Part shown: one piece after another, positions 1 through 21,800 of the stretch
Position numbering within the stretch: the first letter of the stretch is position 1
Layout of the letters: each line of letters opens with the position of its first letter
From: a virus
Lineage: Duplodnaviria > Caudoviricetes
Strand: one strand, 5' to 3'
IMG/VR virus record: IMGVR_UViG_3300044723_000587
Coordinates: 1 to 41,044 of that record
DNA: 41,044 bases
The notes under the pieces: generated by a model
What the model saw: only the letters and a program-made list of their open reading frames with translations
Told to the model about the DNA's origin: nothing
Databases searched by the model: none
Made by a program: the position numbers and the translations under genes

Positions 1-2
1 AG

Positions 3-476
3 ATGAAAAAAGATGAGATGTTAGTACCAAGATTAGATTTCCTTATGCCGAAGAATTTTTTCCTTAGCGAAGAATGGCAGTTAAACTTTGGAGTAGATGG
101 TAATACTGCAATAGGTAGAGTAGCAGAATTGAATCCAGAATGGGTAATAGAAGTAGTAAATAACTTAAACCATAGGTTAACGGATGTACTGCATGATTTT
201 AAAGGTATATACTCAGAGGATGAGCATTTCGTACCAAGAATATCTACTGAAGTTTCTGATGATAGGGTTAACGGATACACTAACCTTCAAACCTACCGAT
301 TATGTTTAGTATTAGATAACGAGCAAGTAGTACCTAATCCCTTAACAAGATTCTTAGAATTAGTACAAGAGAATGAATTTGAATCTAATGATATTGATAT
401 TATCAATTGGAATGAGGTAATTGAGAGATACTCTGATAGCATTCTTTTAGAGCATGATTTTTACGCAAATAAATAA
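3..476 (+). CDS. Hypothetical early protein (start may lie outside the window)
   Basis: 157-aa ORF at the window edge, acidic, no recognised motif. Confidence 0.6.
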   Translation: MKKDEMLVPRLDFLMPKNFFLSEEWQLNFGVDGNTAIGRVAELNPEWVIEVVNNLNHRLTDVLHDFKGIYSEDEHFVPRISTEVSDDRVNGYTNLQTYRLCLVLDNEQVVPNPLTRFLELVQENEFESNDIDIINWNEVIERYSDSILLEHDFYANK

Positions 477-532
477 GATACTCTGATGAGGATTTAATAT
501 CCGAAACTACTCTTAATTGAGTAGTCAGTATC
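477..532 (+). ncRNA. Type I hammerhead self-cleaving ribozyme
   Basis: Stem I GATACT(477-482)/AGTATC(527-532); core CTGATGA(483-489); stem II GGAT/ATCC with TTAAT loop; GAAA(503-506); stem III CTACTC/GAGTAG with TTAATT loop; GTC triplet 524-526, predicted cleavage after C526. Confidence 0.95.
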
Positions 533-559
533 ATAAGATACCAATTTAAATAACACACA

Positions 560-925
560 ATGAAATACGCAAGAAAATGTGATTACACAGGGAAAGGAAT
601 GAATACAGGATATGTATTTATTGATGATTCCTGTATGATAGATGATAGAGAATTATTTATCAAAGAATTAAGACAAGATAGAGAAGGTATTATTAACTTG
701 ATACCAAAAGATATCAATGATATTAAAGAATTTGATAATTCTTGTTATCTAACTGAAAAAGAGATAGAGCAGTTATCTAATAAAGTAGCAAATGCATTTA
801 ATAATACTGAAACTGATGAAGAATTATGCGATATAGCATATGCAGTAGATTATTATTATTGGACAGAATGGGAAGATGAATATGAGTATGAAGAAATTAA
901 TGGAGTATTAACTGAAATAGAATAG
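560..925 (+). CDS. Hypothetical acidic phage protein
   Basis: 121-aa ORF with AT-rich start context; ARKCDYTGKGMNTGY N-terminus and YYWTEW C-terminal motif. Confidence 0.75.
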   Translation: MKYARKCDYTGKGMNTGYVFIDDSCMIDDRELFIKELRQDREGIINLIPKDINDIKEFDNSCYLTEKEIEQLSNKVANAFNNTETDEELCDIAYAVDYYYWTEWEDEYEYEEINGVLTEIE

Positions 926-927
926 AT

Positions 928-1086
928 ATGAAAGATATATTAGGATTACCGATAAAATGGTTAGCAAGATACTACTACACAATATTGATAGTATGGTTAA
1001 CATTAACGATGAGTAGCTGTGGATTAAGATTTGGAGACTACCATGCATGGGAAAAAGATTATAAACAAAAATGTATAAGAAAATGA
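928..1086 (+). CDS. Small putative lipoprotein (52 aa), absent from the ORF track
   Basis: MKDILGLPIKWLARYYYTILIVWLTLTMSSCGLRFGDYHAWEKDYKQKCIRK*; hydrophobic stretch ending in lipobox-like MSSC; fills the gap and its TGA overlaps the next ATG. Confidence 0.7.
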   Translation: MKDILGLPIKWLARYYYTILIVWLTLTMSSCGLRFGDYHAWEKDYKQKCIRK

Positions 1087-1385
1087 TGAGATTAAAATTA
1101 AGTATGATAACATTTAATATGTTAGAGAGTCATTTCAGTAATGACTACGGGAAAAAGAATGGTAATGGTGTAGCTATGCCACTTGGAGATGATAGCTTAC
1201 ATATGATTCATAATGAAGGTGCATTAGAGAATTACAAAGAGACAATAACAAAAAAGTTTGGAGATGTTATGGTGTTATTACAGGATCCTGACGAGGTATG
1301 GTTTAACAAGGTAAAGATTGATGACGGAGTATTTCAAGATTATCATAGAAAATATATGCATAAAGCAATGAATAATAGGAATTAA
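1083..1385 (+). CDS. Hypothetical protein (start probably 1083 or 1086 rather than 1071)
   Basis: ORF track 1071..1385; ATGATGA overlap with the upstream stop. Confidence 0.7.
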   Translation: MMRLKLSMITFNMLESHFSNDYGKKNGNGVAMPLGDDSLHMIHNEGALENYKETITKKFGDVMVLLQDPDEVWFNKVKIDDGVFQDYHRKYMHKAMNNRN

Positions 1386-1386
1386 C

Positions 1387-1459
1387 GTGTGTGTTTCCAT
1401 CATCTAACCTCACTACGAAAGTAGTGGGGATTTGGTGGTAGAGGGATGTTCCTCACACA
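1387..1459 (+). ncRNA. Candidate structured intergenic RNA, class unknown
   Basis: CCTCACTAC-GAAA-GTAGTGGGG hairpin nested in a CCATCA/TGGTGG stem, then a GAGGG/TCCTC hairpin, possibly closed by GTGTG/CACAC; G-U pairs favour the + strand. Confidence 0.55.
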
Positions 1460-1475
1460 ATTAAATTAAATTATT

Positions 1476-1973
1476 ATGAGTAGAGAAGAATTAGAAGCAA
1501 AGTTTATGGAATTTCCTAAACTGGTGGTAGCAAAGTATAATGTATCTGACCATATATCCAGTCAGATAGAATACTTTCAAAAAAACAAAGGAGAGTATCA
1601 AGAAAACTATACCAATGGATTTGATGACAGAAGTTTAGATTTAATCACTGACAAAGAGATATCAAATTATTTCTTTTCAGCTGATAGTGAAGAACACCAT
1701 TATCACTGGGAAGACTTTCTTGAGGATTTAGAAGAAGAATTTAGTCAGTACATAGGTAAAAAAGTTTATGTAGAGGGAAGCAATATGGGATGGAGAAATA
1801 GAAGTGGAGAGAAGACTTTTAAAATTAAATCTACTGAAGATATTTTTAGACAGATAGCACCTGAATGTGAACTGACTTATGAAATGGAGAAAGTAAACGA
1901 TAAAGAGTATGAGGTAAGAATTGCACACCACGACTCACCAATGGGAGAATTGTATAACTTAAAAATTAAATAG
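1476..1973 (+). CDS. Hypothetical phage protein
   Basis: 165-aa ORF; MGWRNRSG and AHHDSPMGE motifs; TTAAATTAAATTATT-ATG start context. Confidence 0.8.
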   Translation: MSREELEAKFMEFPKLVVAKYNVSDHISSQIEYFQKNKGEYQENYTNGFDDRSLDLITDKEISNYFFSADSEEHHYHWEDFLEDLEEEFSQYIGKKVYVEGSNMGWRNRSGEKTFKIKSTEDIFRQIAPECELTYEMEKVNDKEYEVRIAHHDSPMGELYNLKIK

Positions 1974-1975
1974 AT

Positions 1976-2221
1976 ATGAATTGGAAAGAAATGAAAAGTA
2001 AGATACTATCAAATAGTATATTATTAGAGAAACTAAAAAAGTTTCCTAACAGAAAGTTTATTCAGAAGTGTCAGCAAAAATTAGATGCATACAAGAAACC
2101 TAAACCAAATCCTTTAGATTGGTTTAATTATTTTGTAGATTACATTGAAAATACAGATAGTAATCTTTATAATCAAGCGTGTGAGTATGCCGACAATAAA
2201 GAAAAGCAAGAAAATGAATAG
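1976..2221 (+). CDS. Hypothetical protein
   Basis: 81-aa ORF packed against its neighbours. Confidence 0.65.
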   Translation: MNWKEMKSKILSNSILLEKLKKFPNRKFIQKCQQKLDAYKKPKPNPLDWFNYFVDYIENTDSNLYNQACEYADNKEKQENE

Positions 2222-2285
2222 AGAATTAACATACAATAAGTGGATAAAGTATATCCATGATTATCAATTAAATAAAAATAAAATT

Positions 2286-2621
2286 ATGAAAAAAGATCAA
2301 GCGTTAAAAAAAATCAGTAATATGTTGGGAGACAAACATATACATATATCAGATGAGGTAAAAATAGATGATATAAAGGGAACAAAAGGGAAAGTATATG
2401 TAGATAATTCATTGTTAATGGAATTAATAGATGAGATTGCTACTCAAATGACAGAAGAAAAATTTGGAGAATACTATCACAATACGGGATTTGATAATGT
2501 TAAAGATAGAACGTACACTTTAACAGATGAAGCACAGGATTTTTACAATAAAAAGTATGATGAGGTAGAGGGTATGATAAATAACATTACTAACATATAT
2601 TCAAATAATGATGAGCGATAG
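2286..2621 (+). CDS. Hypothetical protein (start 2286 or 2214 more likely than 2145)
   Basis: AAAATAAAATT-ATG context at 2286; alternative ATG at 2214 overlaps the upstream gene end. Confidence 0.65.
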   Translation: MKKDQALKKISNMLGDKHIHISDEVKIDDIKGTKGKVYVDNSLLMELIDEIATQMTEEKFGEYYHNTGFDNVKDRTYTLTDEAQDFYNKKYDEVEGMINNITNIYSNNDER

Positions 2622-2691
2622 ATTAGAAAGTAGTTTTACAGAAATAATAATAGTAATTTTAATAACATTAATAATTTTAATATCAATATGA
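2608..2691 (+). CDS. 27-aa single-transmembrane micropeptide, absent from the ORF track
   Basis: MMSDRLESSFTEIIIVILITLIILISI*; TGA overlaps the ATG at 2688 (ATGA). Confidence 0.5.
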   Translation: MMSDRLESSFTEIIIVILITLIILISI

Positions 2692-2984
2692 AACAGACAA
2701 GCGAATTAATTAAGGAAGTAGGAAGAGAGGTAGTAATTCTACTACTTGAAAAGAATAAAGCGTATGGAGACACTGCAAATGATCCTCCTAAAATATTTTC
2801 TAAACTATCAGCAAAAGAGGGAATACTTGCGAGGATAGATGACAAGTTAAGTAGGATTAAAACAAGTGGGTTAAACGATAAAACTGAGGATACAATGCTT
2901 GATTTAATTGGATACCTTATACTATATAGAGTACAAGTAAAAAAAGATGCTTGGAAAGATATTAATTATTCTAAAAAGAAATAA
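2688..2984 (+). CDS. Nucleotide modification associated domain 1 (Nmad1/DUF1599-like) protein
   Basis: KNxxYGD, RIxDKLSRI and EDTxxDLIGY motifs characteristic of this family. Confidence 0.8.
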   Translation: MKQTSELIKEVGREVVILLLEKNKAYGDTANDPPKIFSKLSAKEGILARIDDKLSRIKTSGLNDKTEDTMLDLIGYLILYRVQVKKDAWKDINYSKKK

Positions 2985-2985
2985 A

Positions 2986-3288
2986 ATGGGAATAAAATAT
3001 AAAGTGCCATTATGTGAGGCATACGATATAGAGATTGATGTTGAAGTGGGAGGAGTAGAATGGCAACATGTGATTTTTAATTTACATGTTTCAGAAGACT
3101 GGGAACATCTTAATCCAAGAAATCCTGTAAATATTAATGCTGAACTAAATATATTTATGGTAGATGACTTAATTAAAGCACTTGAATTAGCAAAGAAAGA
3201 TTATAATTATTATTTAGAAAATGGAAAGAATGATTATTATAAGTATAGAAGACAAGTGTTAAGGAAAAAGAAAATAAATAAAAGTTAA
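2986..3288 (+). CDS. Hypothetical protein
   Basis: ORF track 2947..3288; probable start at the ATG just after the upstream stop. Confidence 0.65.
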   Translation: MGIKYKVPLCEAYDIEIDVEVGGVEWQHVIFNLHVSEDWEHLNPRNPVNINAELNIFMVDDLIKALELAKKDYNYYLENGKNDYYKYRRQVLRKKKINKS

Positions 3289-3295
3289 ACATAAT

Positions 3296-3326
3296 TTTGC
3301 TATTAATTGAAAAAGAATTATATTAG
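3296..3326 (+). promoter_or_regulatory. Bacteroidota primary-sigma promoter
   Basis: TTTG(3296-3299)-N19-TATATTAG(3319-3326), one mismatch to TAnnTTTG; an exact TAATTTTG also occurs at 3292-3299. Confidence 0.6.
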
Positions 3327-3340
3327 CAACCTAATAAAAT

Positions 3341-3418
3341 TAATATTGAGTGTAGTAGGGATTGGAAGGAATATCAATAGAATGGCTAACGAGATTTAGA
3401 CTACTACACTTGATATTA
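3341..3418 (+). other. Long stem-loop in a 5' leader
   Basis: TAATATTGAGTGTAGTAG(3341-3358) pairs with CTACTACACTTGATATTA(3401-3418): 18 bp including two G-U pairs, 42-nt loop. Confidence 0.7.
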
Positions 3419-3434
3419 TATAATTAAATTAAAT

Positions 3435-3728
3435 ATGAAAAAAGAAATATTTGACTCCTATGCTGAGTCAATAGCAAAGCAATTCCACCTTAGTTTAGAC
3501 CAGATGTTTGATAAATCTAAGCGTAGAGATATTGTAGATGCAAGACAAATGCTTTACTACTTATGTATGGAAAGACCAATTAGAATATCATACATCCAGA
3601 GGTTTATGAATGAGCAAGGTTTAGATGTTGCACATTCAACTATTATACATGGCTACAATAGAGCTAAAGGTATGGTAGATAAAGATCCAGACTTTAAGAA
3701 TGTAGTAAATAAACTACAAAATGTATAG
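3435..3728 (+). CDS. DnaA C-terminal (domain IV)-like HTH DNA-binding protein
   Basis: KSKRRDIVDARQMLYYL and AHSTIIHG match the DnaA_C pattern (R..iv.aRq..mYl ... dHsTv.h). Confidence 0.8.
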   Translation: MKKEIFDSYAESIAKQFHLSLDQMFDKSKRRDIVDARQMLYYLCMERPIRISYIQRFMNEQGLDVAHSTIIHGYNRAKGMVDKDPDFKNVVNKLQNV

Positions 3729-4137
3729 TATAGAGGAAGTTTATTCTCAATCCTTATCTGATGAGTTTTCTATACAAGTTAAAAAGCCGTTAGGATTTAG
3801 TGTAGTAAATTATGGAGTAAAGATTCAAAAGTTTAATAGTAAGATTGAATTATTAAACTGCTCTAAGAGTGGTAATTATTTCCAAGAATTTACAGAGGAT
3901 GAGTATAATTTATTTTATCAATACGGATGGAAGGAGGGAGGAGTAAGACTATCTTTATTAAATTACAAAAGAAAGTTAAATTTAGTAAACGATAAAATAA
4001 GGATAGAAATTAATACTCGAAAGAATAATAAACATATATCTAAATTAAAGTCAACAAGAGAAAATTTGTTGGTTAGATATGCAACCAGAAATAAACAATT
4101 AAATAAAATTAAATCAAATGAAAAAAAACATTTTTAA
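3721..4137 (+). CDS. Hypothetical protein, basic C-terminal helix
   Basis: 138-aa ORF overlapping both neighbours. Confidence 0.75.
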   Translation: MYSIEEVYSQSLSDEFSIQVKKPLGFSVVNYGVKIQKFNSKIELLNCSKSGNYFQEFTEDEYNLFYQYGWKEGGVRLSLLNYKRKLNLVNDKIRIEINTRKNNKHISKLKSTRENLLVRYATRNKQLNKIKSNEKKHF

Positions 4138-4720
4138 AGAATTATCTGCAGTTTCCATAAAAGGAAAGACAGATAAAAAAGGAAAGTTTGATTATATGTC
4201 TTGGGCTACGGCTTGGAGTATGATCAAGTCAGAGTACCCTAATGCACAGAGAAAAGTATATGAGTCAGAACACACTGGACTAAACTTTTTTACTGATGGT
4301 AAGACTGCATATGTTAAGGTAGGAATTATAATTAATGATATGGAACATATTGATTACCTACCAGTTATGGATTTTAGAAATAATTCTATAACAATGGAGA
4401 AGTTAACATCTATGGATGTAAATACTGCAATACAAAGATCAACTGCTAAGGCAATTGCTATGCATGGATTAGGATTATCATTATGGATTGGAGAGGATAC
4501 AATTATAACTACTCCAGCATCTAATGTAGTTAGTAAGAATCCATTACCTACAAAGCAAAAGTCAGTACAATTAAATATTGGAGATGCTAACTGGGATAGA
4601 GTTATGAAGTATATTGTAGATAATAAAGAGTTAGGATTACCTAAGATTGTTAAGGCACTTGAGACTAAGTATGATATTAAGGCAAGTGTTAAGAAAGAAC
4701 TATCAAAGCTTATCAAGTAA
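4118..4720 (+). CDS. Sak3/DUF1071-like single-strand annealing protein
   Basis: YMSWATAW, LPVMDFRNN, DVNTAIQRSTAKAIAMHGLGLSLWIGED motifs; lies near exonuclease and SSB. Confidence 0.85.
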   Translation: MKKNIFKELSAVSIKGKTDKKGKFDYMSWATAWSMIKSEYPNAQRKVYESEHTGLNFFTDGKTAYVKVGIIINDMEHIDYLPVMDFRNNSITMEKLTSMDVNTAIQRSTAKAIAMHGLGLSLWIGEDTIITTPASNVVSKNPLPTKQKSVQLNIGDANWDRVMKYIVDNKELGLPKIVKALETKYDIKASVKKELSKLIK

Positions 4721-5055
4721 TGGAAGACATTACTTTATACGATCTACTTAACTTAAAACTATCAAAGTTAACGTGGACAGAAAAAATTCATGAGAGTAAA
4801 ATTTCAAGTGAAGAAGGATTCTCTATAGAATTAGATTATTATAAAAATATTGGTAAGAATAAAGATAAAGACCAGTTACTTGTAAATATTTACTATAAAC
4901 ACATAAACATAGGTGCATTTGGATCTATAGAAAAAGAAGAGTCGGACCAATTTGCTAAGTGGTTTATTGATCAAGCTGAATTAATTGACAAGTCTGATGA
5001 GCAACATGAGAAATTTTTAGAGATTGAGGGTAAGGATAAATTTAAAAACTTATAG
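4720..5055 (+). CDS. Hypothetical protein
   Basis: 111-aa ORF, TAATG coupling with the upstream gene. Confidence 0.7.
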   Translation: MEDITLYDLLNLKLSKLTWTEKIHESKISSEEGFSIELDYYKNIGKNKDKDQLLVNIYYKHINIGAFGSIEKEESDQFAKWFIDQAELIDKSDEQHEKFLEIEGKDKFKNL

Positions 5056-5056
5056 T

Positions 5057-5794
5057 ATGTATCAAATATTAGAAAAATTAAAAGATGATAAGAATTATTA
5101 TGGAGAGTTTGGTCAGCAGTATCTATCAAATTCTGATATAATAACTTTATTAAACGATCCTAAAGAATTTAGGAAGCCAAAGGAGGTAACAAAGGCAATG
5201 CTACTGGGGAGATATTTCCATACTGCTATGTTAGAGCCAGATAAGTTAGATTCTAATGAGTTTATAGATATAGATGTGTCAAGTAGGAATACTAAGAAGT
5301 ATAAGGAAGAATTACTTATACAAAATAAAAGTATTATAATGCTTTCTAAGGAAAAGTCTGGTATTAATAATGCAATATCTACTATGAAGAACAATTTAGA
5401 ATTCTATGATGCTATTTATGATTTAGATAATACATATGAAGTACCTGCGGTACATGAAGTTATGGGTATTATGTGGAAAGGTAAGGCAGATATTGTAGCT
5501 AAGGATATGCTAATAGATCTTAAGACTACCTCAAACATCAAAGACTTTAAGTATAGCGCACGAAAATATAATTATGATAGTCAGGCATACCTATACCAAC
5601 AATTCTTCAACAAACCTCTTGTATTCTACGTTGTAGACAAGTTAACGTTGGAGTTAGGAGTCTATCATCCATCACAAAAGTTTTTGGAGTATGGAAAAGA
5701 GAAAGTAGAGCGAGCAATCGAAGTGTATAACAAATTTTATAGTAAAGATGCTAAAGAAGATATTGAAACGTACGTCATTAAAGAGGTACTTTAA
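5057..5794 (+). CDS. PD-(D/E)XK exonuclease (DUF3799/RecE-like)
   Basis: LSNSDI, GRYFHTAMLEP, KGKAD, IDLKTT, YNYDSQAYLY; probable start 5057. Confidence 0.85.
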   Translation: MYQILEKLKDDKNYYGEFGQQYLSNSDIITLLNDPKEFRKPKEVTKAMLLGRYFHTAMLEPDKLDSNEFIDIDVSSRNTKKYKEELLIQNKSIIMLSKEKSGINNAISTMKNNLEFYDAIYDLDNTYEVPAVHEVMGIMWKGKADIVAKDMLIDLKTTSNIKDFKYSARKYNYDSQAYLYQQFFNKPLVFYVVDKLTLELGVYHPSQKFLEYGKEKVERAIEVYNKFYSKDAKEDIETYVIKEVL

Positions 5795-5909
5795 AAAGAA
5801 AAGTGTGGTGTGGTTGCAAATTCCAACCGACCTCAACACACAAGCTGATAGAGATAATCTCATGGAAGCTACAATGAATCAGTTGGAAAAAATTATTTAT
5901 AAAAATTAA
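5748..5909 (+). CDS. Small hypothetical protein (53 aa), absent from the ORF track
   Basis: MLKKILKRTSLKRYFKKKSVVWLQIPTDLNTQADRDNLMEATMNQLEKIIYKN*; fills the gap and ends 3 nt before the SSB start. Confidence 0.55.
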   Translation: MLKKILKRTSLKRYFKKKSVVWLQIPTDLNTQADRDNLMEATMNQLEKIIYKN

Positions 5910-5912
5910 ATT

Positions 5913-6170
5913 ATGGCAGAAGAAAAAATTTATGTAGGAAACGGGACAACTAAATTTGATGGAAATCAAATTGCTTGTAGCGTATGTTTAACAGACTTAC
6001 CTCAAGAACACATGTTTGAGTACAACGGAAAGAAGTACATCAAGCTAATTGTACAAGAGAAAAAGTCTGTAGATGAGTATGGAAAATCTCATTTTGTTGC
6101 GGTTGACACATGGAAACCAGAACCAAAGAAAGAAACTGCACCAGCAGTGGAAGAAGATCTACCTTTCTAA
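5913..6170 (+). CDS. Small phage single-stranded DNA-binding protein
   Basis: Beta-rich 85 aa ending in acidic EEDLPF; located in the recombination module. Confidence 0.75.
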   Translation: MAEEKIYVGNGTTKFDGNQIACSVCLTDLPQEHMFEYNGKKYIKLIVQEKKSVDEYGKSHFVAVDTWKPEPKKETAPAVEEDLPF

Positions 6171-6190
6171 TAAAGGTAAGGTTATGAAGT

Positions 6191-6222
6191 AGAAGAGGGA
6201 CTTATTGTCCCTTTTCTTTTCT
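6191..6222 (+). terminator. Rho-independent terminator
   Basis: AGAAGAGGGAC-TTATT-GTCCCTTTTCT followed by a T run. Confidence 0.75.
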
Positions 6223-6228
6223 CTTATA

Positions 6229-6407
6229 TATGACGAGATGACGACTTGGTCCTAACTTTTTAGCACTATATAGTTTTTTATATATAATCTTTATTTATTT
6301 ATATATATTCTATATATTTTCTTATCATCTTGTCATAAAAAAAGAATATATAAGTAGTAGTTAGTAGAAAAAGTAAAAAATAACTTGTCATAAAGTTATC
6401 ATAAATT
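6229..6407. promoter_or_regulatory. Putative replication origin
   Basis: Non-coding; imperfect inverted repeat 6229-6244/6322-6337 around a very AT-rich spacer; TTRTCATAAA repeats at 6385 and 6396; directly upstream of the primase-helicase. Confidence 0.6.
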
Positions 6408-6420
6408 AAAATAAAATAAA

Positions 6421-8823
6421 ATGGAAATAACAATATTTAAAGATATTAAAGATACTGCTCAACCTTTTTATAGAGATGTAGATATAATAATAGAAAGGAT
6501 AAGAGAGGGAGCATCACAAGAAATAGTACGAGCAATCCGATCAGAGAAAGATAAAGAAAAAAGAAATCAATTAAAGCAATCATTACCAGCAATATGTTTT
6601 AGTGGTAAATTTACAAAAAGAAATGACTCATCTTTAGTCAATCATAGTGGTTTAATTTGTTTGGACTTTGATAACTTTCCTTCTGAGAAGGAGATGCTGG
6701 AAGAAAAAGAAAACTTAACTAAGGATAGGTACACCTATTCTGTATTCGTATCACCAAGTGGATTAGGATTAAAGGTATTGGTAAAGATTCCTAATGAGGT
6801 AGACACTCATAAACAATTTTTTACATCCCTTCAGCATCATTACAATAATGAGTTTTTTGATATAACATGTAAGAATGTATCAAGAGTTTGTTATGAATCA
6901 TATGATCCATTAATTTATATTAATGAGCAGTCAAGTATATTTAATCAAATACTTGAGCAAGAGTATCAGGAAGTTGTAAAGCATAAGGATGTACAGACTA
7001 TACCAATAACAGATGAGAATAAGATAGTAGAAATTTTAACTAAGTGGTGGGAAAGAAAGTATGGATTAAATAGTGGAGAGAGAAATAACAATGTGTATAT
7101 ATTAGCAGCAGCGTTTAATGATTTTGGTGTAACTAAAACGTTAGCTGAATATGTGATGGGTAACTTTGTTAGTAAAGACTTTTCTCAAAGCGAGATCAAA
7201 AGAACAATACATTCAGCGTACAAACAGGTACAAAACTTTGGTACTAAGTACTACGAGGATGAGGAGAAAGTTAATAATGTAAAACAAAAATTAAGAAAGG
7301 GAGCTACTGCATCAGAAATTAAAAAACAAATAGCTGAAGAATTAGATGTAGAAGATAGTGTTTTAGACAATGTGGTACGAAGACTCGAGGAGGAGCAAGA
7401 CAAACAAAAGTTTTGGACTAAGAGTGATAAGGGAGTAGTTAAAATAATTCATATTTCATTCAAACAATTTTTAGAAGAGAATGGATTCTATAAATTTAAT
7501 CCTGAAGGAAGTAAGAACTATGTTTTTGTTAAGGTTACTAATAATTTAATAGACCACACATCAGAGAAAGAGATTAAAGACTTTATCCTAAACTACTTAT
7601 TAGATGTAGATGATAAGAGTATATATAATTACTTTGCTGAGTGTACAAGATATTTTAGAGAAGAGTTTCTAACCTTACTATCATCTATAAATGTTTACTT
7701 TATAGCGGACACTAAAGATAATGCTTATCTGTACTACACAAATTGTGCAGTTAAGATTACTAAGAATGAAATAATACCAATAGACTACTTAGACTTAGGA
7801 GGTTATGTTTGGAAGGACCATGTTATTGATAGAGTGTTTGATGTTTGTGAGGTTACAAATTGTAATTATAAAACTTTCATTCATAATATATCAGGATCAA
7901 ATGATACAAGAATAAAGTCTATGGAGTCAACAATGGGTTACTTACTACATGGATGGAAGAACTTATCGTACTGTCCAGCTACCATATTAAACGATGAGGT
8001 TATATCAGATAATCCTGAAGGTGGTACTGGTAAAGGTTTGTTTATGAATGGGTTATCTCATATGAAAAAGTTAGTAGTTATAGATGGTAAATCATTTAAC
8101 TTTGAGAAGTCATTTGCTTATCAATTGGTTTCTGCTGATACTCAGATACTATGCTTTGATGATGTAAAGAAACATTTTGACTTTGAGAGATTGTTCAGTG
8201 TAGTAACAGAGGGACTAACTTTAGAGAAGAAAAATAAGGATGCAATTAAGATACCATTTAGTAAATCTCCAAAGGTTGCCATCACTACTAACTATGCTAT
8301 TAAAGGTAAGGGATCTTCTTTTGAGAGAAGAAAGTGGGAGTTAGAACTTAGTCAGTATTACACTAAAGAGTTTACACCACTTGTAGAGTTTGGTAAGTTA
8401 ATGTTTGGTGAGTGGAATGATAATGACTGGTGTCAGTTTGATAATTATATGATAACATGTCTGCAATTATACTTAGATAAAGGATTATTAAAGAGTGACT
8501 TTGTTAATCTTAAGACACGTAAGTTTTCTGCTGAGACATCTCATGAATTTATAGAGTGGTGTGGAATTATAGATGGAATGCATAATCCTAAGTTAACTAA
8601 AGACTCAAGAATTTATAGTAATGATTTATATATGGATTTTGTTAATGAGTATCCTGACTATGGACCAAAGGCTAAGATGACGGTGAGTAGAATTAGATTT
8701 GGAAAATGGTTAGTGTCTTATTCTGTTTATAAATACGATTGTAATCCGTTAGAAGGTAAGGACATGATGGGTAAGTGGATAAAATTTGTTGACAGTACTC
8801 ACTATGAAAGTGATACGGTATGA
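6421..8823 (+). CDS. Primase-helicase (BT4734/VirE_N-like primase domain, PriCT-like region, P-loop helicase)
   Basis: LKQSLP..FSG.F..R, SGLICLDFD, FVSPSGLGLK, SRVCYESYDP; GERNN; Walker A GGTGKG; Walker B ILCFDD; ITTN. Confidence 0.88.
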   Translation: MEITIFKDIKDTAQPFYRDVDIIIERIREGASQEIVRAIRSEKDKEKRNQLKQSLPAICFSGKFTKRNDSSLVNHSGLICLDFDNFPSEKEMLEEKENLTKDRYTYSVFVSPSGLGLKVLVKIPNEVDTHKQFFTSLQHHYNNEFFDITCKNVSRVCYESYDPLIYINEQSSIFNQILEQEYQEVVKHKDVQTIPITDENKIVEILTKWWERKYGLNSGERNNNVYILAAAFNDFGVTKTLAEYVMGNFVSKDFSQSEIKRTIHSAYKQVQNFGTKYYEDEEKVNNVKQKLRKGATASEIKKQIAEELDVEDSVLDNVVRRLEEEQDKQKFWTKSDKGVVKIIHISFKQFLEENGFYKFNPEGSKNYVFVKVTNNLIDHTSEKEIKDFILNYLLDVDDKSIYNYFAECTRYFREEFLTLLSSINVYFIADTKDNAYLYYTNCAVKITKNEIIPIDYLDLGGYVWKDHVIDRVFDVCEVTNCNYKTFIHNISGSNDTRIKSMESTMGYLLHGWKNLSYCPATILNDEVISDNPEGGTGKGLFMNGLSHMKKLVVIDGKSFNFEKSFAYQLVSADTQILCFDDVKKHFDFERLFSVVTEGLTLEKKNKDAIKIPFSKSPKVAITTNYAIKGKGSSFERRKWELELSQYYTKEFTPLVEFGKLMFGEWNDNDWCQFDNYMITCLQLYLDKGLLKSDFVNLKTRKFSAETSHEFIEWCGIIDGMHNPKLTKDSRIYSNDLYMDFVNEYPDYGPKAKMTVSRIRFGKWLVSYSVYKYDCNPLEGKDMMGKWIKFVDSTHYESDTV

Positions 8824-12841: not shown

Positions 12842-15800
12842 TTATTCCATAGGGTTTTTATATAACATAGGGTCTGTTTTATCGTTCATTGGATCTTCTG
12901 AATTCATTGGATCTCCAGAAATCATAGGATTACTATCTGCTTTTTTCTTTGCTTTTCTTTTACTTTTTTTATTACGTTTTCTTTCTGCTTCGTTTTGTAT
13001 TTGATACTCACTGAAGTTAAACAAACGCATAATTACTTTAGCTGGATCCTCTCCTCCTTCAATAAGTTGTTCCATATTTTTAAATATCTTACGAACATTA
13101 TTTACAGGAAGCCCTGTTATTTGAGATGTCTCTGCTAAAGCTTTATACAAAGCCTCTTGTTTTTTCTTAGGATCTTTAGTGTCCCTATATCTTGCAAACC
13201 TTTGGAAAATTTCTTCTCCCTGTGTTAGAATAGGAAGGTTTTTAAACTTTAAAAAACTTTGTGGCTTACCAATAATAAGGTCTTTTATTTTAACAGCAAA
13301 CTCTCCATAAATAAATAAAGCGTTTATATTTCCAAGTATAGCAGCCATACCTAAATCTTTTGCGTCCTCATCTTCCCAGTCAGCTAACAAACCTGGCATT
13401 CCATTTGCTACAAACTGAAAGAATACAGGCATAATTACATGGTAAGTTAAAAATATACGACCAGCATCTGTCTTTGTTCCCTTACCTGACTTACCTCCTG
13501 ACGACATAAGCCTGTACATATTTCGTAAAGCATAAACTTCTTTTCTTAAGTATTGCTTAGGAGTAGTTAAGAACATATTAAGTGCTCTAAATATTGGACC
13601 TTTAGTTTGATAGTAGTCTCTATCTTGTAAGTCAGTAGACTGCTGAGATCTTTTAGTGTCTCTTTCAAATTTAACAATAGCCTCATCAATTGCTTCCTGT
13701 TCTGTCTTACCAGCTTCTAATGCTTTGTTTTTATAGTACACATAGTTAGGAACTCCTCCTAAATAAATTGCACCTCTATCTCCTACCTTTGTAGTATACA
13801 TTAAAATATTTATAAGAGATTCTTTATTAGCTCCAGTCATTAATCTTTTACCCCCTATTGTTATATCAGGAAAGACTGACTCCATAGCATCATCCGAGTA
13901 CATCTCAATAGCCTTAGTCATACTCTTAGCATCCCTGTCTTGTAGGTAGGTAGAGTTTTCTGATATCTCTTTCCATATAGCTTTTACATCTTTACCTTTA
14001 CCAAATCTACTTAAAGCAGCGTTCTTCATCCAATTACCATAACCTATATCTGATGCGTAAGTTATGAATGATGTTAACTGCTTAAGAGTTACTACAGGAT
14101 TAATACCTAAACGAGATAATATAAATAAATCCTGCATAATATCTACAGCATTATCCATTTGAGCATTTTCTTTAAATGTTCCTTTATTAGCTATCTTTTG
14201 AATAGCCGCTGTAATAGCATCCATAGTAGGTTTACCATGTAACCTTTCAATCTCGGACTTTATAACGTCATTAGTAAATAATTTATTGATATCATTAACA
14301 GGACGTGCATAAGCTGAAAAGTATTCCATGTCTCTCATATAAGTATAAAGAACATTAGTACCATCCATAGCTCTAATTTTTTTCTTATTCTGTTCTCTCA
14401 TTTTAGTAGAGTTAGCTGCTACTACATTATGGTATTGGATTTTACCACCATCAGCCCCTGGTATAAGATTAACACCTTCCGCTTCTTGGCCTTCTCTATA
14501 AACCATACCTGCATAGTTTACATTATATGGCATCTGAGTTCTGTATATATCTTGATATGCTTCATTGTAATGATTATAAAGCATAGGATATAAAATATCT
14601 ACTTGCCAGTCTGCAAACTCTTTTAAGTTTTTATATTGTTCAGATTCTAACCTGGTAGTTATTTCATTCATTACTTTAGCCACACCTTTTTCATCTGTGC
14701 TAAAAGTTTTTTGTAGCCCTGGATGATTAGAAGAGTCTTTATACTGGTTGTATAAGTAATACATTTGATTAGGAGATAAAACCATTTCTGTTCCATCAGG
14801 TAAATCAATTGCTTCAGTCTTTCTACCAAAAGATGTTACTATAGATTTATATTTTTTACCAAACAACTCTTGAAACTTAGAAATTATTAGTGCATCATTC
14901 ATTAACATTCTCCCTTTCATCTCACGATTAGCAGCGTCAATTTTTTTAGTTACCTCTTCTTGAGTATTACCTTCAAATAATTCTGCAGGTAATAAAGAGA
15001 TCTTATCCATTAATAAAAATAGATCAGAGTTCTTAGCCATAACATTACCTAATCTTTGTACAATATTATTAGTTAATTTTTTAAATCTTTCTTTAACCTT
15101 TATTTTCTTTTTAGAAGTTCCAGATTCATCTCTTCCCCTACTATCTTTAGTGTCTTTAATATTCTCAATGATATCAGTTATTTTATCTTGTATCTCTGCT
15201 TCAGTTGGGTTCTCAACACCTTCCTCTTTTAATTGTTTTTTAGCCTGATCCTTAAAGCTTTCAGTTCTTCCTGTTACATCTAAGAAAACTTGCTCAAATT
15301 GTCTTTGATATTCTAAATGTGCTTTTCTTAATTGCTCTTTAAGTATAGTTCTACCTGCTGTAATTATTTGTTTTAACTCTGTCTCCACTCCAGCTAACAC
15401 ATTAACTTTAGTAATGTCTTCATTAGACATTAAGTTATTGGCTTTAACCATATTCATAATGATTTGCAGATCAGACATCGCAGTATAATCACCTTCGGTT
15501 TTTTCAGGTTGCTTATTAATATTATCGTACTCAGTCTCTAATTTATATATGTATTCTAATACTTTATCCTGAGTAGCTAAACTACCATCATCTATTCTTT
15601 TCTTTAAAGATGCTAATCTTTTTCTTGTAGTCTCATCTATCTTAACACCTTTAAGAATATTACTTATTTTCTTGAGAGTATTTTTAGGATCTAATAAATC
15701 ATCAATAGACTTATGTAGTCTTACATTGTTTTTTTGAGCAGCAAACTCCATAACTTCATTCATTATTTCATTAATGTTATCTTTATTAGCTTGCTCAATC

Positions 15801-18800
15801 TTTCTCATTAACTTAATAGCTTCTGACTTACTATATATATCTGCAGGTAAAGTCTTACGCATAAAGTTTCTAAGCTCTCTTTGTATTTTTCTTAATTCTT
15901 TTTTACCTTTAGTCTTAGCTCTTAATATTATTCTGGCTTTACGGATAGCCGCATTCAAGTTTGTACTTTGCTTACCACCTAAAGCTTTAGCAACATCCAT
16001 TTCTAATACCATCTGCTCAGTAGAAATTCCTTTCAGTACAGCATCAGCCATTTTTTTATACTCAGGCTGTGCTCTTAAGAAGTCCATAGCCTGATCCATT
16101 ATCTCTTGTTCGGATAGTTTGGTTTTAGCTTTAGCATTTTTAGTTATTAACTTATTATAATGATTAGAAACTTTATTAAATAATTTAATACCAGCCTTCA
16201 TACCCCCTACTATATTACCCATTGATGGTGGTATAATACTAAGAAGGTCTGCATTTACTTTCATTAAGTCTCTAACCTCAGTCTTAGTAAACTTTCTTAC
16301 TCTTGTTAAGTAATCAAGAATAGCAGGATCTGTAAAGTTTAAGTCTCTTGCTTTATTAATTATCTGTAATGGTGTATCAAACTTATTAAAAGTCTTTTGT
16401 GCTTTCTCATCTACACTTCTTTGTGCTTTTTCTTTAGTAGGTGTATATACCTTACCATCTGGTCGGATTAATTTATATCCAGTAAGCTCACCTATATCTC
16501 CTCTTTTTACTTCTACTTTGAACCCTAATGAGTTTGCCCAGTCTTCTAAAGCTACTCTATTAACTCCTGGCTTATTAAAGATAACACCATTCTTTTTCAT
16601 CTCATACATCTTAGCCAGTCTATCTACTGAAGCTTTCTGTGCTTTTTCAGAAGCCTCATTACGCATAGAGTATTGTGGGCGAAACACACCTTTATAATCA
16701 GTACGACCACCTATAACTATTGCATCACCATCTTTAACTAATCTTTGCCACACTCCTTGGGAAGCATCGTTAGTATACCGAGATGATACTAATGTCTTAC
16801 CTTTAGCCTCCATTGCTTTAGCTATCTCTCTATACATATCAGGAGCTAATCCTAATCCTCTGTCAAAATTTTTGATATACACTTGGGATACACTTGGTGT
16901 AGATGTTTGTAGTTCAGATGTAGAAAGTTCTCCTGCTCTTCTAATCCCTTTCATTAATACAAATTCTCCTTTACCTGTTTCTTTTACAGAATAACCATCA
17001 GGGAGTTGTGCTTTCTCACTTTTCTTTATCTTTTTATTTTTACTTAACCATTTTGCATCAGGAACAAATTTCTTTGGTTTATTTGCTTCTGTAAAGTATT
17101 CAATCTTACCTCTTCCATACACTCTGTGTCCAACAATAGTAGCCTCTTCTACAGATCTAACTGGACGGTTGCCCTCAGCTGTCACAAACAAACCACCTCT
17201 CATAGGATTAAACCTAATTTCTACACCATCAAAGTTAGTGTCAGCAAGAGACACGTCTTGGTAAAGTCCATCAACTGAAGCTATAGGAGTTTTATGAGTG
17301 TAACCCTCCTTTATCTTATATACACCTTCTTGATGAACATTGAGGTACACATCTTTTAATGTTACAGCTGGAGCATAGTTTATTGCGGTACCCTTAAAGA
17401 ATCCTGATATACCATCTACTCTTTTATATTTATCGCTAACCTGTCCTTGATGTACAGTTTGAATAGGAATCCCTTTATTTTTTAATACATTTAGATTTAA
17501 CCTAACTCCAACCTTTTCACCTTTCTTCGGTTGTAATCCTTTAGCTATAACTTCTACTGATTTTGTATCACTATTTAAGGCTGCGTCTACTTCGGCTTGA
17601 GTAAAATCAAAACTTCTTTTCTGAGCTTTCTCTGGGTATAATATTTCCAGATCTTGCTCTGTAATTACTTGTGCTTTTTCTTTTATTGGTGCACCCTCTA
17701 CATTAATATCTTTAGGAACCTTAGCAACATACTGTCCACCCATTGCAGAACGAGCAGCTACAGGTTTCGTTCTTTTACCTAAAAGAGTTTGATTACCAGA
17801 AACTGGTTTTGCTTTTGGATAAACCTTTCTAACATCTACTGCATTATTAAATACCATCATAGGTTTACCAGGTAATGCCCATGGGTATGCTGGATGATAT
17901 CCAGGATCACCTTCATTTAATTTAAAAGGTTTACCATCTTGGTCAAACTCTATAGCTGAAATTATATCTCCATATTGAATTTTCTTAAGAGATGGATCAT
18001 TAACTACACTCTCTATATCCCCATCAATAGTTTTTTTCGCTTCAAAAGGATAGATGCCAAACTTATTATATGACTCTGCACTCATAAATTTTCTTGCAAA
18101 CTGACCTCTTACTTCAAAATTTGTAGTTTTAAATAAATCTTGTATCTCTTGGTAATTTTTAATTTGTGTTGGTAATCCATTCTTTTTTAAATATGTAGTA
18201 ATTTTACCATCTCCTCCATCTTTAGTTTTATCAGCAAGTTTTTTATTTATATAATCTACCATTTCTTTTGGTGATGCACCCTTTTCTATTGCATTTTCAA
18301 TCTCTGCATTTAAGAAATCATAAAATTGTAGATTACCTGTAATACCATCTGAAGCCTGAGACATAACAAGTCCCACACCATCACTTTCTTTAGCTTTATT
18401 TAAAACTTTATTAGCTGCTGATTCAGCAGAAAATACCCAAACAGCATTACTTCCTTGAGACTCCGAGCCATAAGGATATAGGTATCCTCCGTTAAACATA
18501 AACTCTAAGCCTGATGGGCTTTCTATATTACCATAAGTAGCTTGGTCTGCAGCAAAAACAAAAGCATTCACTCCACTAAGATCGTTAATAGAACCACGTT
18601 TTATTTTACTCATATCAATACCACCCCTATCTTTTTGGTTTTTTTCTGTTACCTCTAAGTCAATAGACGGACCATCATCAGGAATATTTTCAGGCACAGG
18701 ACCTTCAGCATCTTCTACTACCTCTCCAGGAATCACTTCTATATCTCCCTCTGTAACTTCTGTTCCTTCTCTTACTTTCTTAGATACTGTGTTGAAGAAG

Positions 18801-21800
18801 TCAATCATATCAGCCTCTTCCTTAGTAAACTCTGTTATGTTAACAGGTAAACCAACAGCTTTAGCTGCTTTCTGTAACCATCTCTTTACTATATTTTTAG
18901 TTGGACCATCTAACTGCGTATAAGCTGCAGATAAATATCCAAACAACTCAGACACTTGCTCTTCATTTTGTTCTTCAATAGCATAGTCTTTAGCGAAATC
19001 TTCTATAACTTCTTTCAGATTGGAATCTTTAGGCATTGCTTTTACTACCGCATCTAACATTCGCTTTGTAACTTTACTAAAGTCTGCATTGATTCCCAGT
19101 TTCTTTAATAGCACTGCGTGCATAACCTCATGGGCAACAGTTCTGGTATTAGCCTTAGGAGCGTTGATATGAATAGTATTAGTTGTGGGAGAAAAGGTTC
19201 CTCGTGTTCCTTTGTTTGCTTCACTAACTGCTTGATTATAAGCGTCTTCTGTAGCGTGAAGCACAATATTGGCATTAGGCATTAACTTAGCAATAGCCTT
19301 ACCTGCATTCTTAGCTTGTCTTAATAAAGAAGGAAGAATCCTTACTGCTTTAGGATCACCTGCAGTTTCAGTTACACTTACATTTTCACTTACACTTACA
19401 CCTGGTAGTGTTACCTTTGTCCCATCATTTTTTTCTATAGTAACATTATCATTTTCACTATCTACTTCAACTCCTTTAGTTTTAACCTTAGAATCAGTTT
19501 GTTCAGGAGTTCCTTCTTGCTCCTGCATACCTGTTTGTTCATTAAATATAGATGTTAAATCTTCTACTTCCTCTTGCGTCTGCGAGTCAATATCTGTTTC
19601 ACTTTCGATACTTTCCTGGGTAGGCTCCCCTTGGGTGTCTCGCTCTCCCACTTCTTGGCTACCCTCGGTAGATTCTTGTACATCCACTTTCTTTGGGCTT
19701 GACTTTTGAATGGCATCTCTTTTAGTTTTAATTTGTTCAGGAGTTGGGTTCTCTACTCCCTCCTCTTTTAATTCATTTATTGCCTGAGTATTTAACTCAG
19801 TCTCTTGTGCTTCTTGTTGGTTTTGTATATTACCAGATCGAACTATTCTTTCTACATCATTCTCTAAATCTAACAACTCTTGTTGTTGTCTTTTAGTTAA
19901 TTGTTTATTATATTTATCTATATCATCTTGAAGTTCTTGCTGTCTTAAAAGATTACCAAGTAACTCTTTCTTTTGATTAGTAGGAAGGTCAGATGGTATT
20001 TGATCCATAACACCATTAACTTTATCATACATATCAATTTCACGCTGTCCTTCCTCTTTAGTAATTTCATTATTTAAAATACGCTCTTTAGTTTTTTGAA
20101 TAAATGCGTCTCTTACTACAGGCTCCTTATGAACCTGCTCATACATCTCAAAAACACCATCTCCTAAACCAGTGAAATCTCCAGCTGTTGCTGTCTGTAT
20201 AATAGCAGAAGGCGTACCAATTACAAATCCTCCCACTGCTTCCTGTAGCCCTGCTCTGATTACTTGCTTTACTCCATCACCAAAAGATTCAGGAGTTCTA
20301 AACATTTCTTTTTCTTTATTATAATTATAAGCTTCTTTAAAACCTATGTCAGCAATCTCTTGTGCAAGCCCCGTCTCAAACTCAGCTAATCCAGAAGCTG
20401 TAACTAACAGAAGTCCTTGCCCCATAAGGTTGTTAACCTCTTTCTTTACTACTTGTCTAAAGCTTTGCCCTGTAATATCTTTACCACTTTTCTTTAGTGC
20501 CAGTAATAATATTTTACTTGCCAAACCTTTCTGAGCAATAGCATTTCTAAACCCAAGGTTTTCTAATACACCTACCACTATACCTAAAGGTACAGTAAAC
20601 ATAGTCTTCTCAGCTTCACTTATATCTGCAAAGTCAGGATCATTTTCCATCTCCTCATTAATATGGTCTTCTACTTGAGATATCATATTAAATATTCTAA
20701 CAGGAGCAGGCCCTAACATAGCTGGTATAGATTCAGTTACTCCTATCAGGGCTCCTCCCCAAAAACCTTTTTTAGCTTCTTGAGTAGCCTCCTCAGTAGT
20801 TTCATCCATACCTAACCCATACCTTAAACCTCTACGCCCAGCCTCTAACATTCCCATTTTCTCGTCATACTTTGGATCGTTAGCAAACTGAGAGAACGGA
20901 TTAGCGTACACATTATCTCCAGGCTTTACATCGTACTTTATTTCTTTACGAACCTCATCTAATATTTTAGATTCTATATCATCTAATAAAGTTGTAGTTA
21001 CTTTTTGAGTAGAAGCAGATGTACCGTCTTTTATAGATCCTGCTGATTTAATTTCTGTAGTAGTTCCTGGAGTTTTTTCTATTAACTTTAAAAATCTTTC
21101 ATACTCTTCATCATTAGAAATAATTTCTTGTATTCTTTCTTCCGTATAAGTGTCTCCTAATAAACCAGCTTCTTTTGCTTTAGTTAACACTTTGGTTCTA
21201 TACTCATTCTGAGACATTAAGCCTCCTTCTGCAGGTGCCATATAAGTACCTATATCAATCATCCTATTCATTTGTTGAGTTCCTATACGAGCCGAACCCT
21301 CTAATAAAGCATTATAACCAAAACCCGCTATACTACTTTGCTCACTACGCATCTCGTACCATCCGCCTACAACCTCATCTAATTCTTTTCCTTTTACTGC
21401 TAAATTCTTTTTAGATATTGCAATATTTTGAGAGGCTAAAGCTATTTTTTCTGCAAGAACTTTAGGAGTTGTAGCCATTTGCTGCCCGTCAGGGCCTTCT
21501 ACATATACCACCTCGTTAGGATCCATGTCAGATAAATTATTTTTATCATAAAAGTTTTTAGCCATTAAGTATTCACTGTACTCATCTCTAAGAGAATTGG
21601 TTTCAGTATTTAAATCCTTAACCATATTCTCTACATCTTGCTTTCCTTGAATCTTTTGTTGTTTCTTTACATAGCCAGCCTCTAATTGGTGTAACTTAGT
21701 GCTCTCTTCTTTATTGTCTTTTAAAAATTGTTTTAACTCATCAGAATATTTACCCTTAAAAAACAAAGCATCTAATTCTACTTTTAATGTTTCTCCATTA

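Follow-up and report, generated by a model that had tools for sequence, protein, structure and literature searches.

Positions 477–532 of the phage DNA analyzed here are, by sequence, a complete type I hammerhead ribozyme, for which self-cleavage is predicted. The DNA is a stretch of 41,044 nucleotides (hereafter the window) from the virus record IMGVR_UViG_3300044723_000587, and the motif lies between two small genes. Copies sharing its signature, namely a U-N-A-N-U loop II together with A1.7 and A2.7, recur between the genes of other phages, including cultured ones. We moderately favor a function in which protein-free cutting of a polycistronic mRNA gives the next gene a short standard leader.

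Reading the sequence gave stems I, II and III of 6, 4 and 7 bp, stem III consisting of the pairs A15.1–U16.1 and C15.2–G16.2 and five others (Table 1). The bases required in a hammerhead core (C3, U4, G5, A6, N7, G8 and A9; G12, A13 and A14; the A15.1–U16.1 pair; H17) are all present, and both the fold and the descriptor place the three helices adjacent to this core. Stem I is an open helix, while stems II and III are closed by loops, which makes this a type I hammerhead. Minimum-energy folding of 470–540 yields the hammerhead three-way junction (−16.7 kcal/mol, z −2.56). A preliminary description of this DNA had claimed a complete type I hammerhead with a GUC triplet at 524–526 and a cut 33 nt before the ATG at 560; each named element was found in its place, the predicted fold agrees, and both the triplet and the distance are borne out by the sequence. 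Self-cleavage of the minimal RNA is very probable, and self-cleavage in infected cells is likely.

Table 1. Features of the hammerhead motif and its flanks (positions in the window)
Feature	Position	Strand	Remarks
Upstream ORF, 157 aa	3–476	+	Function not assigned; stop ends at 476, abutting stem I
A2.7, unpaired	476	+	Last A of the TAA stop of ORF 3–476; predicted partner is the first loop II base, U494
Stem I, 5′ strand	477–482	+	Pairs with 527–532
Catalytic core C3–A9, CUGAUGA	483–489	+	Fits the consensus core given in PMC3088659 (excerpts)
Stem II, 490–493/499–502	490–502	+	4 bp and 5-nt loop U-U-A-A-U, 494–498
Core G12-A13-A14-A15.1, GAAA	503–506	+	
Stem III, 506–512/519–525	506–525	+	7 bp, 6-nt loop 513–518
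GUC triplet	524–526	+	Predicted cut C526/A527, from sequence and established hammerhead chemistry
Stem I, 3′ strand	527–532	+	Would form the 5′ end of the downstream product
Small hairpin, 528–532/537–541	528–541	+	Competes with stem I; pairing probability 0.30–0.65
A1.7, unpaired	533	+	Predicted partner is the last loop II base, U498, from covariation
A-rich leader	542–559	+	No Shine-Dalgarno sequence; precedes ATG 560
Downstream ORF, 121 aa	560–925	+	Function not assigned; ATG 560 lies 33 nt past the predicted cut; has relatives

The source record is a linear contig of viral DNA with a completeness of 68%. Across its portal fragment it shares 70% identity with MW202828 and 52% with Elemovirus phages of Flavobacterium. 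The phage is an uncultured marine relative of these flavobacterial phages. The relatives, together with the A-rich leaders lacking a Shine-Dalgarno sequence, point to a flavobacterial host. Searches of PHROG and Pfam returned no family for ORF 3–476 or ORF 560–925, whereas homologues of the former occur in L010, L014, L019 and L093. The left arm is encoded entirely on the plus strand: after a series of small unassigned ORFs come genes for a Sak-like annealing protein and an exonuclease, then a primase-like gene and a helicase gene. The genes beside the motif had been called early, a term whose one basis is this gene order. A sigma-70 promoter scan stayed at chance level (39 vs 41.3).

Several further features of the window were recorded. 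A strong terminator-like hairpin with a U run (6191–6217) stands between the small-gene block and the primase-like gene and may be the end of the ribozyme-carrying transcript. The next large intergenic gap (1386–1475) holds a long irregular hairpin and a small hairpin (z −3.1) before an A-rich leader; it had no Rfam match, could be an RNase III-type processing site, and resembles in shape a region before the ORF 3 homologue in L014 (3580–3672). A perfect 18-bp stem with a 42-nt loop (3289–3434, z −3.8) directly precedes a gene (3435–3728) encoding a DnaA C-terminal helix-turn-helix domain. The minus strand at 12842–22516 encodes a 3224-aa protein whose sole domain match is small (PF25735); a search of it for DxDxD motifs was negative, and its positional counterpart in MW202828 is a 3859-aa gene. 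A 12-nt repeat, 426–437 (matching 476–487), was considered as a duplication scar and rejected, being mostly coding and having its first 8 nt kept in the L014 homologue.

A type I/III descriptor matched exactly once when both strands of the 41-kb window were searched, and 300 dinucleotide shuffles gave 0.017 matches per shuffle to a loose descriptor and none with equal stem lengths (0/300). Run without filters, a covariance model built from 79 copies of relatives, the window copy included, likewise recovered this copy alone from the window, the runner-up having an E-value of 1.7. This count of one applies to an incomplete record that begins 476 nt upstream of the motif; close relatives carry two copies.

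Infernal searches against the Rfam hammerhead models, proposed in the preliminary description as a check, did not call the window copy. No hammerhead reached its gathering score for this copy, none appeared at E ≤ 10 in a scan of window 1–7000, and RF00163 (Hammerhead_1; gathering score 34 bits) left it unmatched in every Rfam search. The only Rfam match to the copy, obtained in a 241-nt search, was RAGATH-1-hammerhead, whose cut-off of 56.3 bits is far above the 26.3 bits scored. One relative scored 31.5 bits against the RF00163 cut-off of 34. The hammerhead group with the U-N-A-N-U signature reaches the threshold of no Rfam model. A BLASTN search of the motif against 50,697 phage records yielded short matches of 18–35 nt, none spanning the motif, and the copies in cultured phages described below were recovered solely by the covariance model, not by BLASTN.

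An exact-pattern search returned six viral loci, in which stems I and II carry compensatory changes and stem III is variable. A looser pattern, fixing the core and part of stem II alone, matched at least 132 viral loci (about 260 by estimate), and a type I fold was completed in 98 of the loci listed. The pooled set holds at least 150 distinct copies in 88 loci of viral contigs. None of the 141 copies with enough flank lies inside a sense ORF. The predicted cut falls 19–38 nt before a start codon in 116 of these 141 (median 25; window 33), and the stop codon of the upstream ORF lies within −20 to +8 of stem I in 125 of the 136 copies that have such an ORF (window 0). Seven array regions gave 35 descriptor matches on the gene strand, one of them an alternative reading of a neighboring copy, and none on the opposite strand. 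G039 carries 14 model matches within 6.3 kb, close to one for every gene, usually in the order stop codon, ribozyme, AGGAGG, ATG.

The pairing itself has been preserved through sequence change: in the alignment of 79 sequences all six stem I pairs change on both sides, as do 13 of the 15 pairs of all stems together. The rows of this alignment were chosen for pairing, and the figure of 100% paired is therefore circular. Stem III differs in length among relatives, one of which has an insertion of about 50 nt. The claim that the motif is a transcript processing site draws good comparative support from its stop–start position, its restriction to the sense strand, the compensatory changes and the arrays; the cutting itself is a prediction, and the flanks are predicted to compete with stem I, as described below.

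Deviating copies were also seen. In the G014 region, only core variants missed by the descriptor are present (L167, 2727–2785 and 4355–4413); a U-U mismatch closes stem II and a CUA triplet accompanies G15.2–C16.2. An extra base, mostly U, separates A9 from stem II in 28 of the 150 copies, L008 and L015 among them; viroid hammerheads have a similar insertion between A9 and stem II. L010 contains eight copies of a 9-nt word (152, 463, 773, 1225, 1441, 1707, 2063 and 3778), mostly intergenic and often after a hairpin, which resembles the cleavage triplet plus the 3′ strand of stem I, and its positions 411–474 look like a decayed hammerhead (11.7 bits). The words may be the remnant of an array that retained only its leaders. 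Copies of the same subfamily also occur in contigs of named bacterial and archaeal genomes from several phyla (L188, L245, L276 and others).

The motif is dispensable, and neither neighboring gene needs it: a hammerhead stands directly upstream of the ORF 560 family in two of six genomes and next downstream of the ORF 3 family in three of six occurrences. Phages reached through the neighboring proteins often hold one or two copies in the same region, but the search found none in MW202828 or in two relatives that are 95% complete. Of 52 records, 45 matched; most had been picked because they bear copies, and the figure is not a frequency. The 135 downstream ORFs fall into 113 families, and leaders near-identical to 542–559 precede five other gene families in relatives. 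The narrow spacing between cut and start, with the reuse of motif and leader before many unrelated genes, fits a device that supplies a standard leader.

The same spacing bears on a different outcome, in which the cut marks the message for decay, so that the flanking genes are expressed less or for a shorter time, as in glmS cleavage. According to excerpts of a review, cleavage followed by RNase decay is the sole well-understood bacterial case (PMC6765202), and small host-takeover genes may want just a brief pulse of expression. We nevertheless regard decay as unlikely, because the cut falls so narrowly before the starts that the ribosome-binding signals stay on the product, which fits translation better than destruction, and because RiboJ in an equivalent position increases expression in E. 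coli (PMC6206723, in part).

The variety of the downstream genes could instead mean that the motif is a DNA joint for the exchange of gene cassettes, like the PeSL elements of T4-type phages, and that cutting is incidental. One motif with its leader does join different genes: the ORF 3 family precedes three different families, of 14 upstream families seen repeatedly, 10 are joined to two or more partners, contigs show further combinations, and PeSL provides a precedent (PMC2839356, in part). We found no excess shuffling at the ribozymes, where the next gene was the same in one of 15 pairs compared with 36 of 249 elsewhere in the region, a control with a small sample and one over-merged family. 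Moreover, the stems vary by compensation whereas the core and tertiary bases are fixed, indicating selection on RNA function while DNA identity eroded. A DNA joint is therefore quite improbable.

The copies share more than the common core. Stem I has 6 bp in 137 of the 150 copies, and stem II has 4 bp with a 5-nt loop in 130, with U as the first loop base in 130, A as the third in 120 and U as the last in 120. A second, independent scan covered bacterial and archaeal genomes with a pattern that fixed the core, base 2.1 and the loop only. A type I fold was completed in 47 of 100 matches; although the pattern made no such demand, all 47 have a 6-bp stem I together with A2.7 and A1.7. Among the 196 copies with a 13-nt stem II domain, the first loop II base and position 2.7 are U/A in every case, and the last loop II base and position 1.7 are U/A in 177, A/U in 12, G/A in five, A/A in one and G/G in one. 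The 12 A/U variants trace to about five independent sources. They can also be read as lengthening stems I and II by a pair apiece, a reading that would likewise imply coupling.

U1.7 is known to make a Hoogsteen contact with the final base of loop II, as excerpts of PMC11875169 describe. The 12 A/U variants have this usual form, and so does the copy of Cellulophaga phage phi18:3, with a tetraloop ending in A and U1.7. The window copy lacks the usual orientation, having A533 at 1.7 and U498 at the end of loop II. We predict from the sequences that the majority U/A1.7 combination is the known contact with its bases exchanged, accompanied by a second U/A couple at 2.7; in the window, the tertiary pairs U498–A533 and U494–A476 are probable. 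No pseudoknot between loop II and the flanks was found by eye or by mutual information. We found no description of this signature, or of hammerheads in Elemovirus or phi18:3, in the parts of the literature covered; De la Pena and Garcia-Robles 2010 and Weinberg 2015 may include the group. What is new is the structural signature and its cultured carriers, whereas the intergenic setting in phages was already known (2011). Novelty of the signature was judged without the type I alignment of Perreault 2011, which may contain these sequences.

Cultured phages carry the motif as well. The covariance model placed one copy in elemoE_6-9C (16301–16364, minus strand, 53.3 bits), with the predicted cut 28 nt before gp66; the motif was read base by base in one Elemovirus record. 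This copy follows an unannotated 21-codon minus-strand ORF whose stop overlaps stem I. All 68 Elemovirus records (Flavobacterium sp. BAL314) match its 201-nt region with 95% identity or more. An annotated plus-strand hypothetical gene, NC_055854 gp65 (L163 16289–16396), overlaps the ribozyme on the opposite strand and was probably miscalled. In phi18:3 (NC_021794) one copy (21901–21961) lies between gp050 and gp049, with its predicted cut about 34 nt before gp049 and ardA about 0.9 kb downstream. The model search gave no match in the cultured relatives phi38:1, Panino, Gundel_1 and MW202828, and in Calle_1 no more than a weak non-hammerhead match. The model-searched records of cultured phage–host pairs with the motif hold one clear copy apiece, and function could thus be tested by altering the core once.

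Flanking sequence affects the predicted fold. Stem I pairing was 0.93 for 474–535, 0.31 with the 3′ flank and about 0 with the upstream coding sequence added, in a model of naked RNA at equilibrium that omits tertiary contacts, Mg2+ and ribosomes. Since long flanks abolish stem I at equilibrium, the ribozyme would need folding during transcription, cover by ribosomes and the tertiary contact to be active in vivo. Such competition might be used as a translation-coupled switch, the end of ORF 3–476 pairing with the core and preventing cutting unless covered by a ribosome; the fold of 420–565 pairs 440–454 with the core, and the stop codon adjoins stem I. Across 135 copies, the disturbance of stem I by native upstream flanks did not exceed that by swapped flanks (0.34 vs 0.37, p 0.11), and the stop codon touches stem I because genes here abut anyway (925/928 and 1973/1976 in the window). 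We thus hold a switch to be extremely unlikely.

On the 3′ side, the hairpin at 528–541 is predicted by folding to cap the 5′ end of the cut product. The same flank occurs in L008, L011, L019, L037 and L096, and 30 of 149 copies have a 3′ hairpin, compared with 17.0 ± 3.6 expected from swapped flanks and 20.6 ± 3.9 from shuffled flanks. It is a minority feature, modestly above the controls. RNA-library contigs of relatives cross the site: X6 record 6 covers the whole motif, and one X5 RNA-library contig begins about 10 nt before the predicted cut. These are assembled contigs, which cannot reveal ends, and the run search gave shares of at most 0.17 for RNA libraries; the site-spanning contigs may represent precursor or DNA.

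In arrays, pieces excised between two copies might be re-joined at their ends, giving circular or shuffled mRNAs. Among 150 within-group pairs, 45% share an identical stem I and 12% an identical stem III, compared with 8% and 1% between groups, and four arrays hold one stem I constant while stems II and III vary; in addition, a type I body can accept a new 3′ strand, as discussed in excerpts of PMC3088659. Duplication with faster change of the short hairpins accounts for this stem pattern, however, and the window has a single copy, whose 528–541 hairpin would block re-pairing. Perreault et al. sought circles and, in the excerpts of their article, found none (PMC3088659), and the four runs that we compared with the two-copy relative L014 contained no back-joint at thin coverage. 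Re-ligation is consequently very unlikely, and we place equally little weight on its wider form, in which the subfamily with the reversed two-pair dock serves as one-per-gene punctuation in the phages of many hosts and a shared stem I lets gene-sized pieces circularize or re-join.

For leader-forming cleavage, we propose the following course. The shared message would be cut at 526/527 without protein, and the downstream gene would gain a fixed 33-nt leader. The upstream piece would retain both closed stems, II and III, and carry a 2′,3′-cyclic phosphate at its end, while the downstream piece would begin with a 5′-OH and fold the 528–541 hairpin, which might pull the product off the ribozyme and shield its end. 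Cyclic-phosphate and 5′-OH ends resist 3′ exonucleases and 5′-monophosphate-dependent decay. Speed at cellular Mg2+ would come from loop II, which is predicted to dock against the end of the 6-bp stem I by way of U498–A533 and U494–A476. Genes of the variable region could then be translated and stabilized regardless of upstream sequence, as with the synthetic insulator RiboJ. By this analogy, we lean narrowly toward independent translation and stability of each interchangeable gene as the benefit. The ends assumed, cyclic phosphate upstream and 5′-OH downstream, are those of hammerhead products (PMC6765202, in part), and RiboJ raised mRNA about 2-fold and protein 2–10-fold (PMC6206723, in part).

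By itself, the window copy is one further example of a phage intergenic hammerhead. Two results reach further: the motif lies in cultured phage–host pairs, and a sharply defined subfamily escapes the Rfam thresholds. If the reversed contact is true, the motif would be a 56-nt scaffold for a fast ribozyme, useful as an insulator part and for annotation.

The role of phage hammerheads has been an open question since 2010–2011, as portions of two reviews state (PMC6765202, PMC6155905), and the former, from 2019, terms their purpose undefined. Among known structures, RF00163 (Schistosoma-like) shares the type I topology, a 6-bp core-proximal stem I and a 4-bp stem II, but the window copy has a long, stable stem III and exchanged bases in the contact between 1.7 and loop II. 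RF03152 (RAGATH-1) shares type I and a long stem III, but stem II is 1 bp long in its model and 4 bp long in the window copy, which is also a poor fit to the upstream hairpin that the model includes. The minimal hammerhead of O'Rourke et al., as cited in excerpts of PMC11875169, shares the 6-bp stem I and an unpaired 1.7 linked to the last loop II base; there the combination is A/U1.7, while the ribozymes described here are natural and cis-acting, with a 5-nt loop, predominantly U/A1.7 and a second U/A2.7 couple. PeSL cassettes are also small repeated intergenic elements of hypervariable phage regions, but they are promoter–terminator units shown to drive recombination (excerpts of PMC2839356), which differs from the lack of excess shuffling seen here.

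The closest natural counterparts are described in the excerpts of Perreault 2011 (PMC3088659). There, hammerhead clusters flank single prophage genes, cleave in vitro and in E. coli, and were proposed to process mRNA. The copies studied here are alike in their intact core, their intergenic position among small variable phage genes, their clustering and the proposed operon- or gene-length mRNAs; even ardA, near the phi18:3 copy, lies near some of those hammerheads. The stabilizing elements differ: a pseudoknot or U-Nm-Y-N / R-Nm-A in those clusters, and the U-N-A-N-U loop II with A1.7 and A2.7 here. RiboJ, as far as parts of PMC6206723 describe it, was engineered from sTRSV and placed after a promoter, whereas the present ribozyme is natural, type I and intergenic, with the hairpin in a minority of copies. 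Both put a hammerhead directly before a ribosome-binding region and would leave a standard leader with a 5′ hairpin.
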